DNA from: Anaerolineae bacterium
Lineage (GTDB): Bacteria > Chloroflexota > JAHJIN01
NCBI GenBank assembly: GCA_034435155.1
Contig: DAOTYG010000324.1
Coordinates: forward strand, 13,622 to 77,621
DNA: 64,000 nucleotides
Reading direction: 5' to 3'
Shown here: one piece after another, positions 8,575 through 62,805 of the stretch
Layout: every line of letters starts with the position of its first letter
How positions within the stretch are numbered: the first letter of the stretch is position 1
Notes under the pieces: model-generated
Told to the model about the DNA's origin: nothing
Database searches by the model: none
What the model saw: only the letters and a program-made list of their open reading frames with translations
Translations under genes and position numbers: made by a program

Positions 8575-9035
8575 TCCTCCTCGTATATTTGCTCGCGCGG
8601 GGTCTGCCCCTTTTGCTCGCGCGGGGTCTGCGACCCCGCGCCCGGCGGCTTCTGTGCTCGCGCGGGGTCTGCGACCCCGCGCCCGGCGGCGGGTGACACA
8701 CCCGCCGCGAGCTGTGCTCGCGCGGGGTCTGCGACCCCGCGCCCGGCGGCTTCTGTGCTCACGCGGGGTCTGCGACCCAAGTGCTCACGCGGGGTCTGCG
8801 ACCCCGCGCCCGGCGGCTTCTGTGCTCACGCGGGGTCTGCGACCCCGCGCCCGGCGGCATCTTGTGCTCACGCGGGGTCTGCGACCCCGCGCCCGGCGGC
8901 TTCTGTGCTCACGCGGGGTCTGCGACCCCACACCCAGCGGCGGGTGACACACCCGCCGCGAGCACAGTTGTTCCCGCCGCGAGCACAGTTGTTCCTGTGC
9001 CATGTGGGGTCTGCGACCCCGCGCCCGGTGGCGGG
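8575..9035. repeat. Tandem array (~9 copies, ~41-bp period) of hairpin repeat TGCTC[GA]CGCGGGGTCTGCGACCCCGCGCCCGGCGGC (10-bp perfect stem GCGCGGGGTC/GACCCCGCGC)
   Basis: Directly visible periodic repeats between the surface-protein start and the TadG-PQQ stop; inter-repeat segments are short (6-25 nt) and recurrent, not unique. Confidence 0.9.
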
Positions 9036-11960: not shown

Positions 11961-12077
11961 GGACACTATACCCTTTCCCTGTACCCTCCCGCAGGTTAGA
12001 AAACAACTGCCAACCGAGGTAGCCGGTCATTGGGGCGTAATCTGGTCCCCTCCAACCTGCGGCAGGGTGGGCACCAG

Positions 12078-27197: not shown

Positions 27198-27210
27198 GGC
27201 TCCCCCAATC

Positions 27211-27362
27211 GAATGGACGAATGGACGAATGGATGAATAGACGAATGGACGAATAGACGAATGGACGAATAGACGAATGGACGAATGGACGAATGGATGA
27301 ATAGACGAATGGACGAATAGACGAATGGACGAATAGACGAATGGACGAATAGACGAATGGAC
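27211..27362. repeat. Octanucleotide microsatellite (GAATRGAC)x19 followed by an inverted GCATTCGTCCATTC hairpin
   Basis: Perfect 8-bp periodicity; the ORF track's DUF47 N-terminal extension (HSSIRPFVYSSIRLFV x n) is its translation. Confidence 0.95.
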
Positions 27363-42329: not shown

Positions 42330-42411
42330 GATTGGCAAATGGCAGATTGCAAATGGCAAATTGCAGATTGCAGATTGCAAATTGCAGATTGCAGATTGCA
42401 GATTGCAAATT
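42330..42411. repeat. Heptanucleotide tandem repeat (GATTGCA/AATGGCA)x11
   Basis: 7-bp periodicity between giant membrane gene stop and four-helix-bundle start. Confidence 0.95.
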
Positions 42412-42426
42412 ATGGAAGGAGGGGCT

Positions 42427-42828
42427 ATGACGTATGAGGAGTGGGAGCGGCAGGTGGCGGGGGAGATCAAGGCGGATGCGTTGTGGCAGATGGATGTGTA
42501 TCGGCTGGCGTTGTATCTCTACGACCTGGCCTGGGATGATTGCGAGACGCTAATGAGGGATGCGCGGGGCAGGGCGATAGTGGAGCAACTTATCCGCAGC
42601 GCTGGATCGGTGGCGGCCAACATAGAGGAAGGGTTTGGCCGGGGTTTTGGCAAGGGATACGCCTACTTTCTGCGCATCTCTCTCGGCTCGGCCCGCGAGA
42701 CCCGGGGCTGGTACTATCGAAGCCGCCGTTTGTTGCCCCCGGCCGTGATCAAGCATCGCCTGGACCTGCTGAGCCAGATCGTCGCGATCCTCGTCACGGC
42801 CGCGCACCAACAGAGACAGCGCAAGTAG
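42427..42828 (+). CDS. Four-helix-bundle protein (TIGR02436 / 23S rRNA intervening-sequence protein family, Avd-like)
   Basis: Motifs SVAANIEEGFGRG, YFLRISLGSARETRGWYY typical of PF05635; start at ATG 42427 with GGAAGGAGGGG RBS, since the ORF-track N-terminus is repeat-derived. Confidence 0.75.
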   Translation: MTYEEWERQVAGEIKADALWQMDVYRLALYLYDLAWDDCETLMRDARGRAIVEQLIRSAGSVAANIEEGFGRGFGKGYAYFLRISLGSARETRGWYYRSRRLLPPAVIKHRLDLLSQIVAILVTAAHQQRQRK

Positions 42829-42920
42829 CAGATTGCGGATTGCAGATTGCAGATTGCAGATTGCGGATTGCAGATTGCAATTCGCAATTTGCAATTTGCA
42901 ATTCGCAATTCGCAATTTGC
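42828..42920. repeat. Heptanucleotide repeats (GCAGATT)x7 then (GCAATTY)x6 forming a long imperfect palindrome
   Basis: 7-bp periodicity; second half is a near reverse complement of the first half. Confidence 0.95.
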
Positions 42921-46460: not shown

Positions 46461-46472
46461 CACACCTCCATT

Positions 46473-46555
46473 TCGGAATGCGGAATGCGGATTTCGGAAT
46501 GCGGAATGCGGAATGGGGGGCCATACGCCGCATTCCGCATTCTATATTCTACATT
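46473..46555. repeat. (CGGAATG)x6 heptamer tract plus inverted GCATTCCGCATTC arm forming a hairpin
   Basis: Between AGPS-like gene stop and glpD start. Confidence 0.9.
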
Positions 46556-53405: not shown

Positions 53406-53434
53406 AGCATTCGTGATCGGGGGACGTTCCTACC

Positions 53435-54465: not shown

Positions 54466-54590
54466 GCAGTGACTGCCTGCCCTCCCGCAGGTTGGGGTAC
54501 AATGGGCCAGACCAGAAGGTATTGCCCCTCTAACCTATTACAAACTCCTTGCAAACCCCCCGCTTTTGGTATAGAATAAGACCGGCTATT

Positions 54591-54766
54591 GCGGAATGGG
54601 GAATGCGGAATGCGGAGTGCGGAATGGGGAATGGAGAATGCGGATTTCGGAATCTGATTACGCAGTCTGCCATTTGCCATTTGCCATGTGCCATTTGCAA
54701 TTTGCAATCTGCAATTTGCAATCTGCAATCTGCAATCCACAATCCGCAATCTGCCATCCGCAATCC
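54591..54766. repeat. Heptanucleotide repeats (GGAATGS)x~9 then (TGCCATT/TGCAATC)x14 upstream of pdxS
   Basis: Two adjacent 7-bp-period tracts. Confidence 0.95.
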
Positions 54767-54785
54767 AGGTCAAGGAGGATCTGAG

Positions 54786-55673
54786 ATGGAAAAGGAAACT
54801 GGAACCTGGACGGTAAAAGTGGGCCTGGCCCAGATGCTCAAGGGCGGCGTGATCATGGACGTGGTGACGCCGGAGCACGCGAAGATCGCCGAGGAGGCCG
54901 GGGCCTGCGCGGTGATGGCCCTGGAGCGTGTCCCGGCCGACATCCGTGCCCAGGGCGGCGTGGCCCGCATGAGCGACCCGGAATTGATCTTGCGCATCAT
55001 GGACGCCGTGACCATCCCGGTGATGGCCAAGTGCCGCATCGGGCACTTTGTGGAGGCGCAAGTGCTGGAGGCCCTGGGCGTGGACTATATTGACGAGAGC
55101 GAGGTCCTCACGCCGGCCGACGAGGAGCACCACATTGACAAACACCAGTTCAAAGTGCCTTTCGTCTGCGGCTGCCGCAACCTGGGCGAGGCGTTGCGGC
55201 GCATCGGCGAGGGGGCGGCCATGATCCGCACCAAGGGCGAGGCTGGCACCGGCAACGTGGTGGAGGCTGTGCGCCATGCCCGGGCCGTGCTGGGCGAGAT
55301 CCGGCGCCTCCAGAACATGGCCCCGGAAGAGCTGATGCACGCCGCCAAAGAGATGGGCGCGCCCTACGAGCTGGTGGTGCAGACGGCGAAACTGGGCCGC
55401 CTGCCGGTGGTGAACTTTGCCGCCGGCGGCATCGCCACGCCCGCCGACGCCGCCCTGATGATGCAGTTGGGCATGGATGGCGTCTTTGTCGGCTCTGGCA
55501 TCTTCAAGTCCAGCGACCCGGCCCGGCGGGCCAAGGCCATCGTGGAGGCCACCACCCACTTCCGCGACCCGGCCATCATCGCCGAGGTCTCCAGGGGCCT
55601 GGGCGAGGCCATGCCCGGCCTGGAGATCGCCAGCATCCCGGTGACCGAGCTGCTGGCCGGGCGCGGCTGGTGA
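54786..55673 (+). CDS. pdxS: Pyridoxal 5'-phosphate synthase lyase subunit PdxS
   Basis: Near-canonical PdxS sequence ([19 protein letters not shown]..., [31 protein letters not shown]); AAGGAGG RBS. Confidence 0.95.
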
Positions 55674-56130
55674 GCGAGTACGCCCTGCGACCAGCGACCA
55701 TCGCGGACCTGGCCGAGGTGGTGCGCCTGCGCCGGCGCATGTTCGAGAGCATAGGGGTGACGGACATCGCCGCTCTGGACCGGTCCGATGCAGCCTGTAT
55801 GACCTACTTCGCCCAGGCGATCCCGTCGGGCGAGTACCAGGGCTGGGTCGTGGAAACGCTGGATGGCCACGTGGTCGCCAGCGCGGGTTGTGTCATAGAC
55901 CAGCACCCGCCAGGCCCTGGCAATCCCACGGGGCGCATCGGCTATATCATGAACCTGCCCTTTGGGGTGGAGCCAGAGCACCGGCGGCGCGGCGCATCAT
56001 GACCGCCGTCCTGGAGCACCTGCGCGCCGATGGGATATGTGTGTTTGCCCTCCACGCCACGGAGCTGGGCCGGCCACTGTACGAGAGCCTGGGCTTTGTC
56101 GCGTCCAACGAGCTGCGGCTGCGGTGTTGA
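55670..56130 (+). pseudogene. GNAT-family N-acetyltransferase interrupted by a +1 frameshift near 55985-55995
   Basis: Frame A ends ...EPEHRRRGAS*; continuing in the next frame gives the GNAT motif-A region RRRGIMTAVLEHL...; an extra base in the CGGCGGCGCGGCGCA run would explain it. GTG start overlaps the pdxS stop (GTGA). Confidence 0.6.
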
Positions 56131-56139
56131 GGGTGACCA

Positions 56140-56448
56140 ATGGACATTAGCGACATCAAGGTCCGCATACGCGACAACCAGTATGTGTATACCCTTCATG
56201 CAGATATTGAGCGCAAAGCAGAGGGACTGACCATCGCTCAGGTAGAAGAAGCCCTCCTGAGCAGTGAAATACTCGAACAGTATCCTGATACTGGGCGTGG
56301 GGCAAGCTGTTTGGTAGTTGGTTTTGCCAAGGATATACCGATCCATGTGGTCTGCGGCTGGCGTGGCGACAGAATCGCATTGATTACCATCTACATCCCT
56401 TGCCCTCCCAAGTTCGTTGATCCCTGGACACGAGGAGAAAGACCATGA
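56140..56448 (+). CDS. DUF4258-like putative toxin
   Basis: Small ORF overlapping (ATGA) a zinc-finger antitoxin-like gene; low-GC relative to surroundings. Confidence 0.6.
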   Translation: MDISDIKVRIRDNQYVYTLHADIERKAEGLTIAQVEEALLSSEILEQYPDTGRGASCLVVGFAKDIPIHVVCGWRGDRIALITIYIPCPPKFVDPWTRGERP

Positions 56449-56693
56449 ACAAGGTTCGTTGCAATTTCTGCGGTAGTGATCGGTATGAAGAGCGGCGGAT
56501 CGAGTATCTCTATAGTCACCAGGGTGAGTATCTGCTCGTTCCCAACACGCCGGTTGAAGTATGTCTGGATTGCGGGATGGTATACTATGATGCCGTGGTC
56601 CTCAAGAACATCGAACAGCGGTTTTTTGCCATTTATCGGCATGAGCAAGAGCCGGATCGTTATGTGCGAATGCCAGAAGCGGTCTATGCTTGA
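56445..56693 (+). CDS. YgiT-type zinc-finger protein (MqsA-N-like putative antitoxin)
   Basis: CNFCGS...CLDCG zinc ribbon spacing as in TIGR03831-type proteins. Confidence 0.6.
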   Translation: MNKVRCNFCGSDRYEERRIEYLYSHQGEYLLVPNTPVEVCLDCGMVYYDAVVLKNIEQRFFAIYRHEQEPDRYVRMPEAVYA

Positions 56694-56925
56694 TTCCTTG
56701 CCCCTCAGCCGAGACTTTTGCGTCCAACGAGCTGCGGCTGCGAGAATAGGGAGGCATACCGATGAGTGCCATGAGAGCGATCCGTTTGCGCGGTCGGGTC
56801 AGCCGCGACCGGGGTTTGGAGGTTTTGGAACCCCCTGAACTGCCAGGCGGCTAGTCACATACAACCCCGCCGATTTTCAGAGGTACGGCGAGATCATTCT
56901 GGAGGCGAGGCCAACGTAGGATTCG

Positions 56926-57510
56926 ATGACCCGCATCGGCGTACTTGCCCTGCAAGGGGCCTTTATCGAACACGAGCAGATGCTGCGCCGGCTGGGCGCG
57001 GAGGCGGTGGAGGTGCGCCTGCCAGCCCACCTGACCGGCCTGCACGGCCTGATCATGCCCGGCGGCGAGAGCACCACCATCGGCAAGCTGGCCGTGACCT
57101 ATGGCCTGCTGGAGCCGCTGCAACGCCTGGCCCGCACGGGGTTCCCGATCTGGGGCACCTGCGCCGGCCTGATCCTCCTGGCTCGCCAGGCAACAGACGG
57201 CGCGCCCGGCCAGCCCCTCGTCGGGGCCATGGACATCACTGTGCGTCGCAATGCCTTCGGCCGGCAGGTGGATAGCTTTGAGGCGGACCTGGACGTGCCG
57301 GCCTTTGGCCCGCCGCCGTTCCGCGCCGTCTTTATCCGCGCCCCCCTCATCGAGCGCGTGGGGCCAGGCGTGGACGTGCTGGCCCGCCTGCCGGACACCG
57401 GCGGGATCGTGGCCGTCCGACAAGGCCATTTGCTGGCTACCGCCTTCCACCCGGAGCTGACGGACGACGCGCGCTTTCACGCCTGTTTCCTGACCATGTG
57501 CCAGCAGTAG
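56926..57510 (+). CDS. pdxT: Pyridoxal 5'-phosphate synthase glutaminase subunit PdxT
   Basis: Class I glutamine amidotransferase triad context (GTCAG, HPE), [17 protein letters not shown]-terminus typical of PdxT. Confidence 0.9.
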
Positions 57511-57528: not shown

Positions 57529-58533
57529 ATGACGAATCTCACCATCCGCCCGCTGCTGCCCGGCGACCTGCTGACGGGCCGGGGTCAGCCCAGACGCGAG
57601 CTGTTCCTGAGCACCGACGGCCTGTCGGCGCCGGCGCGCCGGCCCCCCTGGGCCGGGTTTCTACCCTGGGGGGTGGCCGGCTATGGCCTGCTCGGCGAGA
57701 GCGACACCCATGGGCCGGCCCTGATCTACGCCCGCCCCCGGCCCCGCCGCGACAAGTGGGACGTGGTCTACCTGGCCGGCCCCGCCGATGCGAGCGACGA
57801 TACCATCACCGCTCTCTGGCAAGCGCTGCTGGAACGGTTGTGCCAGGAGGCCGGCCGCCAGGGCGTCTTGCGCGTCTTTGCCCGCCTGGATGAGCAGGAC
57901 GAGATGGTGGACCCCTTGCGCCGGGCCGGATTCGTGCTCTATAGCCGCGACCTGCTCTGGCAACGCGCGCCGGGCCCGGCGGCCGCGCCCCCCAGCGAGC
58001 CGCCGTCGGGCACCCTACGCCCGCAACGTGGGGCCGATGCCTGGGGCCTGCATAGCCTGTACCGGGCGTTGGCCCCGGCCATCGTTCAGCAATCCGAGGG
58101 GTTGACCAGCCGGGACTGGCGACCTACGGGCCGGCGTTGGTTGGGCAACGGGCCACGGGCCTATGTGCTCATCGTGGCCGGCGAGATCAAGGGCTGTTTC
58201 CGCGTGACCGAAGGGACAGCCGAAGCCCGGCTATGGCTCCTGGCCCATCCCGAAGCCCGCCCGGCCCTGAGCGCGTTGCTGCCGGGCTTCGGGTTGGACC
58301 CGCTGCGCACCTTGACCGTCCTGGTGCCCGAATACGGCAGTTGGGTGACCGGCCTGCTGGAAGGGGCCGGGTTCCAGCACGTGGGCGCGCAGGCCCTCTT
58401 GGTCCGGCATACCGTCGCCTGGGCGCGCGCCCCGGAGCCGCGCCGCCGGCCGGTCATCAAAGAGGTCCTGGAGCCGGCTCCCACCACCCCGGCGGCCCCG
58501 GCGACGGCCCCAGCGGGGGGAGAACAGACGTGA
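57529..58533 (+). CDS. Hypothetical protein, possibly GNAT-fold
   Basis: ORF with ATG; weak GNAT-like N-terminal region; low-complexity Pro/Ala-rich C-terminus. Confidence 0.45.
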   Translation: MTNLTIRPLLPGDLLTGRGQPRRELFLSTDGLSAPARRPPWAGFLPWGVAGYGLLGESDTHGPALIYARPRPRRDKWDVVYLAGPADASDDTITALWQALLERLCQEAGRQGVLRVFARLDEQDEMVDPLRRAGFVLYSRDLLWQRAPGPAAAPPSEPPSGTLRPQRGADAWGLHSLYRALAPAIVQQSEGLTSRDWRPTGRRWLGNGPRAYVLIVAGEIKGCFRVTEGTAEARLWLLAHPEARPALSALLPGFGLDPLRTLTVLVPEYGSWVTGLLEGAGFQHVGAQALLVRHTVAWARAPEPRRRPVIKEVLEPAPTTPAAPATAPAGGEQT

Positions 58534-58949
58534 ACGAGCTGGCCCTGGCCGACGTGTGCCACCGTCATGGGGTCTCCCTGGTCGTGCTCTTTGGTTCCCA
58601 GGCCACGGGCATGGCACGACCGGATAGCGACCTGGACCTGGGTATCCTGGTGGACGAGTACCCGGTGGAACCGGCGCGGGAGCTGGCCTTGATCCGGGAC
58701 CTGGTATACGCCCTGCGCCGGGCCGACCTCGATGTGATTATCCTGAACCAGGCCAATCCGTCGTTGTGCTACCAGGCGGCGCGTGATGGCCGGCCCCTCT
58801 ACGAGCGCGAGCCGGGCACCTTCGACCGCTTTCGGTTCCGGGCCTGGAAACGCTTCATTGATACGGCGCGCTTCCGACGATTACAAGGCCCGTTCATCGA
58901 GGCATTCCTGAGAGGAGAGGTCTACCGTGCTCGACAGGTTGGCTCTTGA
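58530..58949 (+). CDS. Nucleotidyltransferase (MNT-type antitoxin of HepT/MNT pair), GTG start overlapping upstream stop
   Basis: LVVLFGSQATGMARPDSDLDLGILV is the minimal-NTase GS...D.D motif; GGGGGAGAA RBS. Confidence 0.75.
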   Translation: MNELALADVCHRHGVSLVVLFGSQATGMARPDSDLDLGILVDEYPVEPARELALIRDLVYALRRADLDVIILNQANPSLCYQAARDGRPLYEREPGTFDRFRFRAWKRFIDTARFRRLQGPFIEAFLRGEVYRARQVGS

Positions 58950-59181
58950 AGAGAAACTGACCCTAGACTACTCATCGTTTATCGCTCTGGGCAAGGCGGG
59001 CGTGCTGTCGCCGGACTTTGCCGAGTCCCTGGCCCCCACCACGGCGATCCGCAACCGCCTGGTCCACGAGTACGATACCATTGATGAGCGACTCGTCTAT
59101 GCCAGCGTGCAGCCGATCCGGGCAGAATTCACCCGTTACATGGAACAGATCCATCGCTATCTACAAGGACAGGTAACTTGA
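58927..59181 (+). CDS. hepT: HepT-like (DUF86) toxin
   Basis: Rx4HxY motif [13 protein letters not shown]; overlaps MNT gene by 23 nt. Confidence 0.8.
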
Positions 59182-62465: not shown

Positions 62466-62805
62466 CCCGCAAGTCAAAGATTCCTGCTCGCGCGGGGTCT
62501 GCGACCCCGCGCCGGCGGCTATCTTGTGCTCGCGCAGGGTGTGCCACCCCGCGCTGGTGGGCGGCGGGTCACCCAGTCAGGCCTGGGCCTGGCAGACCCG
62601 CCGCGAGCGAGGGTCTTATGCTCGCGCGGGGTCTGCGACCCCGCGCTGGTGAGTGGCGGGTCACCCAGTCAGGCCTGGGCCTGGCAGACCCGCCGCGAGC
62701 GAGGGGCACACCCTCTTATGCTCGCGCGGGGTCTGCGACCCCGCGCTGGTGAGTGGCGGGTCACCCAGTCAGGCCTGGGCCTGGCAGACCCGCCGCGAGC
62801 AGTGG
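62466..62805. repeat. Tandem array (3.5 copies, ~95-bp composite unit) of the same GCGCGGGGTCTGCGACCCCGCGC hairpin plus a second GGCGGGTCACCCAGTCAGGCCTGGGCCTGGCAGACCCGCC hairpin
   Basis: Near-identical 95-bp units between darA and the CBS gene. Confidence 0.9.

Follow-up and report, generated by a model that had tools for sequence, protein, structure and literature searches.

We analysed a stretch of 64,000 nucleotides (hereafter "the window") from an Anaerolineae bacterium of the Chloroflexota (GenBank assembly GCA_034435155.1, contig DAOTYG010000324.1, positions 13,622 to 77,621 of the forward strand), which carries an operon for vitamin B6 synthesis. Here pdxS and pdxT, encoding the two subunits of pyridoxal 5'-phosphate (PLP) synthase, are separated by a broken GNAT acetyltransferase gene and by a small pair of genes, predicted to encode a DUF4258 toxin and a YgiT/MqsA-type zinc-ribbon antitoxin. 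Two copies of a 23-bp direct repeat, both of them GNAT coding sequence, bracket the pair, and the origin of this repeat is the subject of the present analysis. The features of the locus, in window coordinates, are given below; loci used for comparison are designated by L numbers.

54786 to 55673, plus strand: pdxS, lyase subunit of PLP synthase, first gene of the operon (Pfam SOR_SNZ, 375 bits)
55670 to 56130, plus strand: GNAT acetyltransferase pseudogene in two open reading frame (ORF) pieces, with a 10-nt deletion near 55985 and an RW-type allele end (..GFVASNELRLRC and stop)
56101 to 56123, plus strand: left copy of the repeat, an exact match inside the full-length GNAT gene; it continues as GTGTTGAG, to be compared with GTGGTGAG in L099 and L100
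56140 to 56448, plus strand: predicted DUF4258 toxin gene (PF14076, 54.2 bits against a cutoff of 25, profile positions 1-70 of 71)
56445 to 56693, plus strand: predicted YgiT/MqsA-type zinc-ribbon antitoxin gene (TIGR03831, 44.4 bits against a cutoff of 20.2)
56694 to 56716, plus strand: spacer after the antitoxin gene with the proposed illegitimate junction; its first part, CCTTGCCCC..CCGAG, resembles the spacer between antitoxin and pdxT in L099 and L102
56717 to 56749, plus strand: stump of a second GNAT allele without an upstream gene, translated as F-ASNELRLRE and stop, which aligns to the 3' end of the L014 GNAT gene
56720 to 56742, plus strand: right copy of the repeat, an exact match within the GNAT stump
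56763 to 56855, plus strand: vapB' remnant, the first 30 VapB codons and then a stop made by a deletion (MSAMRAIRLRGRVSRDRGLEVLEPPELPGG and stop, against MTTIKAVRLRGRVAPEGELEILDAPPELPAGE.. in L014)
56851 to 56919, plus strand: 'vapC remnant, comprising the 3'-terminal 22 codons and the stop of a gene for a PIN-domain VapC (LVTYNPADFQRYGEIILEARPT, against LVTYNPDDFQRYREITLETRPT in L014, 18/22)
56926 to 57510, plus strand: pdxT, glutaminase subunit (Pfam SNO, 195 bits), with an ATG start as in L014

The repeat, GCGTCCAACGAGCTGCGGCTGCG, occurs exactly twice in the window with a spacing of 619 nt, and no further copy was found there with up to 3 mismatches; 100 dinucleotide-preserving shuffles yielded no match (0 expected), and a search for dyad symmetry within the 23-mer found none. 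The original prediction, made from the sequence alone, had reported the same repeat at 56103-56125 and 56722-56744, that is 2 nt too high, and had recognized it correctly as the 3' end of the GNAT gene: the left copy closes the GNAT reading frame (stop at 56128-56130) and is duplicated downstream. The right copy is in frame with the stump peptide, as revealed by three-frame translation of the 230 nt between the antitoxin gene and pdxT. In related loci amounting to 577 kb, matches to the 23-mer that allow up to 4 mismatches are confined to GNAT 3' ends, with one per locus except in the window lineage. The stretch that can be aligned around the two copies extends to at most ~36 bp, with a gap and 4 mismatches, the exact match being 23 bp. 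Four of the contigs fetched, each from a different sample (ENA, two from JGI, and Logan), agree exactly over 981 bp that include both copies and the GNAT frameshift, so the repeat structure is not an assembly artefact.

The GNAT gene itself appears to be an old resident of the operon. Its orthologs, 67-91% identical, are always found between pdxS and pdxT in uncultivated Chloroflexota; the order pdxS-GNAT-pdxT is preserved in eight lineages (seven beside that of the window), and pdxS and GNAT overlap. In a slightly more distant relative (L105-L107, PdxS 93% identical at the amino acid level) pdxT follows pdxS directly. Since GNAT lies between pdxS and pdxT across the clade and is absent from L105-L107, the gene would, judging from these comparisons, define a sub-clade as an old, clade-specific member of the operon that stands outside the recent event. 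Thus, the earlier view that pdxS and pdxT are normally adjacent is valid for the L105-L107 relative and not for the clade in question. The suspected frameshift was confirmed: the first frame piece covers 55670-56002, the second frame ends at 56130, and alignment against all five other orthologous loci revealed a 10-nt deletion (CGGCCTGGCC), flanked by short CGGC repeats. In L007 another replacement has independently cut the GNAT gene short after codon ~122. GNAT therefore seems to be decaying in the species-level group that comprises the window and L007. The GNAT genes of the window and L011 share an indel (CCCTTTGGG) that is absent from the closest relative L007, and this mosaicism indicates that exchange among these lineages occurs. 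A breakpoint comparison with L007 exposed only a short mosaic patch, L007 lacking the 3' third of GNAT. A promoter-like site at 54549-54577, upstream of pdxS, is the only one predicted in the region; no plus-strand terminator was predicted between pdxS and pdxT, and the search for RNA families at the region returned nothing relevant. As the DUF4258/YgiT pair has neither a promoter of its own nor a nearby terminator in these predictions, it is probably co-transcribed with the pdx operon.

The pair has the hallmarks of a toxin-antitoxin (TA) module. That the repeats bracket an overlapping DUF4258/YgiT pair of low GC content was borne out by the profile matches listed above, by the 4-nt overlap (ATGA) of the co-oriented genes, toxin first, and by the drop in GC content to 0.49-0.54 over 56100-56700, against 0.67-0.73 in pdxS, GNAT and pdxT (51% for the gene pair amid DNA of 68%). 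The insert between the repeats amounts to 596 bp (56124-56719) and holds only the two TA genes. The antitoxin has 82 aa and two CxxC pairs (CNFCG and CLDCG) and lacks a helix-turn-helix (HTH) domain; its matches to MqsA and YokU are below threshold, in the case of the full-length MqsA model because the HTH half is absent. DUF4258 is listed among the TA toxins of the RelE/ParE superfamily with the BECR (Barnase-EndoU-Colicin-RelE) fold, and fusions of DUF4258 with MqsA are known (PMC11980606). The toxin is 83% identical at the amino acid level to the copy at the same locus in L011 and 66-78% identical to those of 80 metagenome loci, none of which adjoins pdxS, GNAT or pdxT; the antitoxin gene follows the toxin gene in every one of these loci that extends far enough. 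With the pair kept across unrelated contexts, 56140-56693 is predicted to be a type II TA module. A sequence search for a solved structure or a characterized member matching the toxin found none, and the toxin had no matches in phage and plasmid collections. The cassettes of the window and L011 are homologous from the toxin ATG to the antitoxin stop and 75-85% identical at the nucleotide level, within the range of their flanks (74-90%); an unlinked copy in L019 is about as similar, so that divergence is not decisive between a vertical and a horizontal history of the cassette. The cassette of the window begins with GTGTTGAGGGTGACCA and ends with CAGCCGAGACTTTT, and no terminal sequences common to it and the other 80 loci were found. 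Neither an integrase nor a transposase was found in the ~10 kb to each side (~20 kb in total), and no pair of inverted repeats brackets the cassette ends (56124/56719).

Comparison of GNAT genes revealed two classes of allele ends, distinguished by what follows the 23-mer. In the first class it continues as GTGKTGAG, encoding ..RW or ..RC before the stop (left copy of the window, L099 and L100), and in the second as AGARTGA or AGAATAG, encoding ..RE before the stop (right copy of the window, L012, L013 and L101). The GNAT gene of L014 also ends in ..RW and that of L011 in ..RE. The left copy of the window reads ..RC, of the RW type, and the right copy ..RE. The octamer GTGTTGAG directly inside the left repeat is identical at 7 of 8 nt to the GNAT ends of L099 and L100; on these alignments, the bases inside the left repeat are best read as RW-type GNAT sequence and not as the end of an inserted element, and the repeat would end just where the two allele types diverge.

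The DNA to the right of the cassette tells a corresponding story. In L014, an 80-aa VapB and a 149-aa PIN-domain VapC (matching TIGR00028 and Pfam PIN) are encoded between GNAT and pdxT. At the DNA level, window positions 56707-56854 align to the end of the L014 GNAT gene, the intergenic spacer and the first third of vapB, and positions ~56847-56940 to the end of vapC and the start of pdxT; the stop of 'vapC lies 6 nt before the pdxT ATG, the same junction as in L014. Among 120 database homologs the VapC of L014 is the best match to the 'vapC remnant, and no closer intact vapBC donor was found among them. The right repeat thus appears, from these alignments, to belong to a unit GNAT stump-vapB'-'vapC-pdxT, a decayed form of the L014 architecture. 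The illegitimate junction between this unit and the cassette can be placed no finer than about 56707-56720, a region with a possible CCGAG/CTTT microhomology whose placement is ambiguous.

The junction between GNAT and pdxT is a hypervariable slot whose small modules differ from lineage to lineage. L012 and L013 have nothing in it. L014, a distant relative (PdxT 62% identical at the amino acid level), carries an intact vapBC, and L011 a DUF4258/zinc-ribbon pair followed by a split, uncharacterized ORF. In L099, a zinc-ribbon gene stands alone directly before pdxT, while L102-L104, whose PdxT differs from that of the window by 5 aa, have a decayed DUF4258 remnant, a REP-like (repetitive extragenic palindrome-like) insert and the 3' half of an antitoxin gene, again directly before pdxT. 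In L007, with flanks 95-97% identical to the window, an orphan 131-aa ORF takes the place of the last third of GNAT. The L011 cassette follows GNAT directly and without a second GNAT end, the best match between its upstream and downstream sides being 12 nt; L099 and L102 have no GNAT stump at the same slot either, and their antitoxin gene is followed by a spacer of 21-25 nt and then by pdxT with a GTG start, the spacer being different from that before the ATG start of the window and L014. The original prediction had taken the repeats for the footprint of a site-specific or duplicative insertion of the cassette, a reading that it would have given up if relatives carried the same arrangement without the direct repeat; this is the situation of L011 and L099, where the cassette occupies the slot and a second GNAT end is missing. 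The notion of a recombination footprint survives, while that of a target duplication or a site-specific insertion is not supported by these two loci or by the GNAT-like sequence of GTGTTGAG.

As to the earlier suggestion to look for an empty site in related genomes, empty slots exist in L012 and L013, and an exact empty site was not found in close relatives. A cassette-free junction, in which one repeat copy runs on into vapB, would have the sequence GGCTTTGTCGCGTCCAACGAGCTGCGGCTGCGAGAATAGGGAGGCATACC, and a junction of the cassette without the stump would have the antitoxin end and spacer joined to GTG- or ATG-ACCCGCATCGGC. Exact look-ups of the toxin, the antitoxin and pdxT for a cassette-free close relative returned members of the same population only, and a scan of genome contigs for an empty site with a lineage-specific 334-aa neighbor returned a single distant metagenome-assembled genome (MAG). 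The close lineages L007 and L102 have other slot arrangements; L014 has one GNAT end, followed by vapBC and pdxT.

We propose, with a probability of roughly 0.6, that the repeat is a recombination scar left by the stacking of two alternative alleles of the slot, and not a target-site duplication. One version of the slot would have been GNAT with an RW or RC end followed by the DUF4258/YgiT pair, and the other GNAT with an RE end followed by vapBC; in the window lineage the two would have been joined in tandem. DNA from a related strain could have entered by homologous recombination on one side (pdxT or else pdxS/GNAT), and on the other side an illegitimate joint would have connected the spacer behind the antitoxin gene to a point ~30 nt before the stop of the other GNAT. 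Such a process, homologous at one end only, would correspond to homology-facilitated illegitimate recombination (HFIR), or "displacement", and its product would be a full GNAT gene, the TA pair, a GNAT stump of ~33 nt, vapBC and pdxT. The 23 identical bases would then be no more than the stretch common to both GNAT alleles before their last two codons diverge. Afterwards the middle of vapBC would have been deleted and GNAT frameshifted by the loss of 10 nt, the DUF4258/YgiT pair staying intact. Both types of parental architecture exist in relatives, the GNAT-DUF4258 pair in L011, L099 and L102 (decayed in the last two) and GNAT-vapBC-pdxT in L014, and an orphaned GNAT stump between the DUF4258 pair and the vapBC remnant is what displacement leads one to expect. 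What the sequences show is the anatomy of the locus, the two classes of GNAT ends, the alternative occupants of the slot and the lack of mobility genes; from these we infer the one-ended mechanism and its direction. With respect to the direction, we lean towards the stump and vapBC as the later arrival, with pdxT as the anchor, because L102 and L099 share the junction of antitoxin, spacer and GTG-pdxT, and the window has the L014-type junction of vapC stop and ATG-pdxT. The reverse, in which the cassette arrived on a GNAT anchor and the old gene end was displaced downstream, would give the same product. The repeat itself would have no function and could at most permit a rare RecA-mediated loss of the cassette.

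Several observations weigh against the stacking of slot alleles. Among close relatives none was found to have the exact parental arrangements, so that the event is reconstructed and not observed. A recombination tract is not visible in pdxT or the gene downstream of it, where window-specific single-nucleotide polymorphisms (SNPs) are evenly spread, which leaves both directions of the event plausible. Identity switches from 23/23 to unrelated sequence at both edges of the repeat, and at its left edge the switch is sharper than simple allelic divergence predicts, with only ~9 of 13 further bases matching across a 2-nt gap. Finally, an excess of flanking repeats around cassettes of this family at unrelated loci might indicate that the cassette has a duplicative insertion mechanism of its own.

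This last observation gives some weight to the alternative that the cassette (56124-56719) was inserted with a long target duplication into a resident GNAT(..RE)-vapBC-pdxT locus, 7 nt before the GNAT stop, the 23 bp being duplicated on insertion, e.g. through the filling-in of widely staggered nicks, a mechanism suggested for restriction-modification (RM) complexes. We regard this alternative, the main rival, as unlikely. In its favor, excision of 56124-56742 restores a natural-looking gene end, ..GFVASNELRLRE and stop, followed by vapB, that is an L014-like architecture, and the two copies are 100% identical; moreover, long target duplications are documented for RM systems, including repeats over the 3' end of a gene (PMC2853133). 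However, the supposed insert would begin with GNAT sequence (the 7/8 match of GTGTTGAG to RW-type ends), L011, L099 and L102 carry the cassette at this slot without any duplication, and the cassette has no conserved terminal sequences in common with other loci. The definition used by Furuta et al. (2010) comprises a direct repeat of >30 bp, the absence of mobility genes, an insert of <20 kb and an empty site with one copy; the window locus has no mobility genes and an insert of 596 bp, but its repeat of 23 bp falls short of the 30 bp of the class. The mechanism behind that class may, in addition, be the same one-ended recombination.

To assess flanking repeats in the cassette family, the 400 nt upstream of the pair were compared with the 400 nt downstream in 67 loci (the window, L011 and L019-L098), which group into 45 clusters at 90% identity. 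Of these clusters, 8 gave direct matches of at least 33 bits, as compared to 2 of 162 pseudo-sites in the same contigs (Fisher p = 9e-5), and inverted-strand matches of at least 30 bits were found in one cluster only; removal of low-complexity, REP-like and weak cases left 5 of 45 clusters (p = 0.006). The flanking direct repeats are 23-98 nt long, and the cassettes have a GC content of ~0.35-0.59, usually below that of their flanks. In L036 (3795-3892 and 4586-4683) and L038 the pair lies inside the T-box leader of serS, with a complete T-box downstream (RF00230, 108 bits) and a partial copy of 98 nt upstream, 92% identical and covering model positions 11-101. In L032 a repeat of ~85 nt (~1605-1690 and ~2300-2390) includes a promoter-like sequence (TTGACC-17-TAGAAT), the 5' untranslated region and the opening codons of the gene downstream; the same downstream copy is found in L029, along with an extra insertion of ~225 nt just after a duplicated start of the toxin gene. 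Both the duplicated serS leader and the duplicated promoter and gene start are of the kind that a long target duplication would produce. In L023 the repeat of 35 nt (773-807 and 1431-1465, 97% identical) is the 3' end of a small upstream gene (..LVVIPEQEDERELRSQFRDAAEVVFAKLWDNE..), which is found downstream of the pair in several related loci of the group L022, L023, L037 and L049 and also upstream in L023 and L037; because the same small gene occurs downstream of the pair in related loci, this repeat points to stacked modules. The subfamily of L022, L023, L037 and L049 has conserved cassette flanks, GCAGYCGYCGCACTGTTGAAGT on the 5' side and a spacer of ~44 nt on the 3' side.

The causes of the flanking repeats thus look heterogeneous, and either frequent one-ended recombination or a duplicative mode of cassette insertion could account for their excess. 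It is conceivable, albeit doubtful, that DUF4258/YgiT cassettes, and perhaps chromosomal TA modules in general, spread by recurrent duplicative integration that copies 20-100 nt of the target and thereby keeps the interrupted gene end, promoter or riboswitch leader functional, as a TA counterpart of the long target duplication of RM systems. If this were true, the 23-bp repeat of the window, the T-box leader of L036, the promoter and gene start of L032 and the gene end of L023 would all be instances of this mode.

An integration of the Campbell type appears improbable to us. In this scenario a circularized fragment from a related strain, comprising the last 25-30 nt of GNAT and the TA pair, would have been integrated by a single RecA-mediated crossover within the 23 bases. 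Such a crossover gives the order homology-insert-homology, in which the left copy continues into the donor sequence and the right copy into that of the resident, as seen here, and 23 bp is close to the minimal length for efficient RecA-dependent exchange, ~23-27 bp in E. coli. Nevertheless, it would require a very short homology and a circle of ~620 bp, and no evidence of such a circle exists; the donor GNAT sequence that should lie immediately upstream of the right copy can hardly be recognized, and the final product would be the same as that of the one-ended linear model.

Site-specific integration, with the 23-mer as the att core for an integrase acting in trans and the cassette as a miniature integrative element, is very improbable. 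A directly repeated gene 3' end, the left copy of which supplies the gene with a replacement end, is a typical sign of attL/attR, but no integrase was found in the ~20 kb examined, the 23-mer has neither dyad symmetry nor other copies, the cassette-bearing relatives L011 and L099 lack a second core, the repeats that flank cassettes elsewhere (35-98 nt) are unrelated in sequence, and searches of phage and plasmid collections gave no match to the toxin. That the repeat arose by chance, belongs to a dispersed REP-type family or is an artefact of assembly is barely credible: the genome is rich in REP-like and heptamer repeats, but the shuffles gave no match, the 64 kb contain just two copies, each of them readable as GNAT coding sequence, and four contigs from four samples agree. 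The search for the 23-mer elsewhere, which had been suggested earlier as a check, thus found just two copies in the window, neither of them a REP. A REP or other dispersed repeat proper, which would be present in many copies, usually palindromic and intergenic, was ruled out by the two coding-type copies without dyad symmetry; a transposon target-site duplication was rejected given the lack of inverted repeats and of a transposase and the GNAT nature of the DNA inside the left repeat; and an integron cassette with attC was rejected as the repeat is coding sequence without dyad symmetry.

Some further features of the window and of related loci were recorded alongside. Tandem tracts of 7-8-nt repeats (GGAATGC and TTGCAAT types) lie at 54590-54770, directly upstream of pdxS, and at 27210-27350 (here CGAATGGA), 42356-42905 and 46470-46500; the TA pair of L043 and that of L044 are flanked by comparable tracts. 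An intergenic motif, ACCCTCCCGCAGGTTAGAAA, occurs at 11983, 12661 and 26415, with partial copies at 53431 and 54479; the partial copy at 54479 is upstream of pdxS, beside TACAAT, and the copies at 11983 and 12661 bracket a segment with 45-51% GC. Two genes downstream of pdxT there is a variable pair of a nucleotidyltransferase (MNT) and a HepT-like (HEPN) gene (58530-59181): L007 lacks the MNT gene (window 58582-58981 is unmatched), and the HepT-like ORF of the window has 84 aa as compared to 141 aa in L011-L013. REP-like GC-rich palindromic clusters are found at 8590-9006 and 62485-62755 (e.g. TGCTCGCGCGGGGTCTGCGACCCCGCGC and GGCGGGTCACCCAGTCAGGCCTGGGCC), and the decayed TA pair of L102 is broken up by such a unit (~350-470). 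Long exact direct repeats between 1-520 and 1396-1915 (up to 70 nt, spacing 1395) and between 48147 and 49364 (53 nt, spacing 1217) are suggestive of paralogous genes in tandem, or of duplications, in other parts of the window.

The locus offers a clear case from nature of the turnover of chromosomal TA modules without mobility genes. A fixed slot in a housekeeping operon holds nothing, vapBC, a DUF4258/YgiT pair, decayed versions of these or orphan ORFs, and in the window two of them are stacked. [quoted passage not shown] For annotation, the lesson is that short direct repeats around a TA pair are by themselves not evidence of a transposon-like element.

Among known systems, DUF4258 toxins paired with MqsA/YgiT antitoxins resemble the window pair in having the toxin first, overlapping genes and the pairing in every complete locus; unlike MqsA, the window antitoxin is a zinc ribbon only, without the HTH DNA-binding half, and no promoter of its own is predicted. 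Integrase islands with attL and attR share with the window a duplicated gene 3' end in which both copies have an in-frame stop, whereas the window has no integrase, an insert of just 0.6 kb and relatives that carry the insert without a second core. RM complexes resemble the locus as well. They too consist of a small addictive gene pair of deviant GC content between direct repeats, without mobility genes, and their long target duplications (Nobusato 2000; Furuta 2010, PMC2853133) range from 46 bp upward, to several hundred bp in some, and may overlap the 3' end of a gene (Furuta 2010, PMC2853133). Their repeats are single-copy in relatives, and flanking repeats are enriched around them, as around the cassette family of the window. 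In the window, by contrast, the left copy runs on into gene sequence of another allele, relatives carry the cassette without the repeat, and a precise empty site was not found. The best parallel is provided by T6SS effector-immunity, Rhs and CDI loci, in which the old 3' end and its partner gene are pushed downstream of a new module, an arrangement attributed to HFIR (Kirchberger 2017, PMC5361080; for HFIR and displacement see also de Vries & Wackernagel 2002, Prudhomme 2002 and Jackson 2009, as cited in PMC5361080). There, as in the window, a conserved upstream gene serves as the homology anchor, the downstream module is exchanged without mobility genes, and the new module is followed by the orphaned 3' end of the upstream gene and by the old module. 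The window differs in that its modules are type II TA pairs in a vitamin B6 operon and not the tips of secreted toxins, in that the orphan piece has only ~33 nt, and in that the anchor may be on the downstream (pdxT) side. The stacking of slot alleles is most likely an event of this known kind, and the window a further example of it, not a new mobile element.

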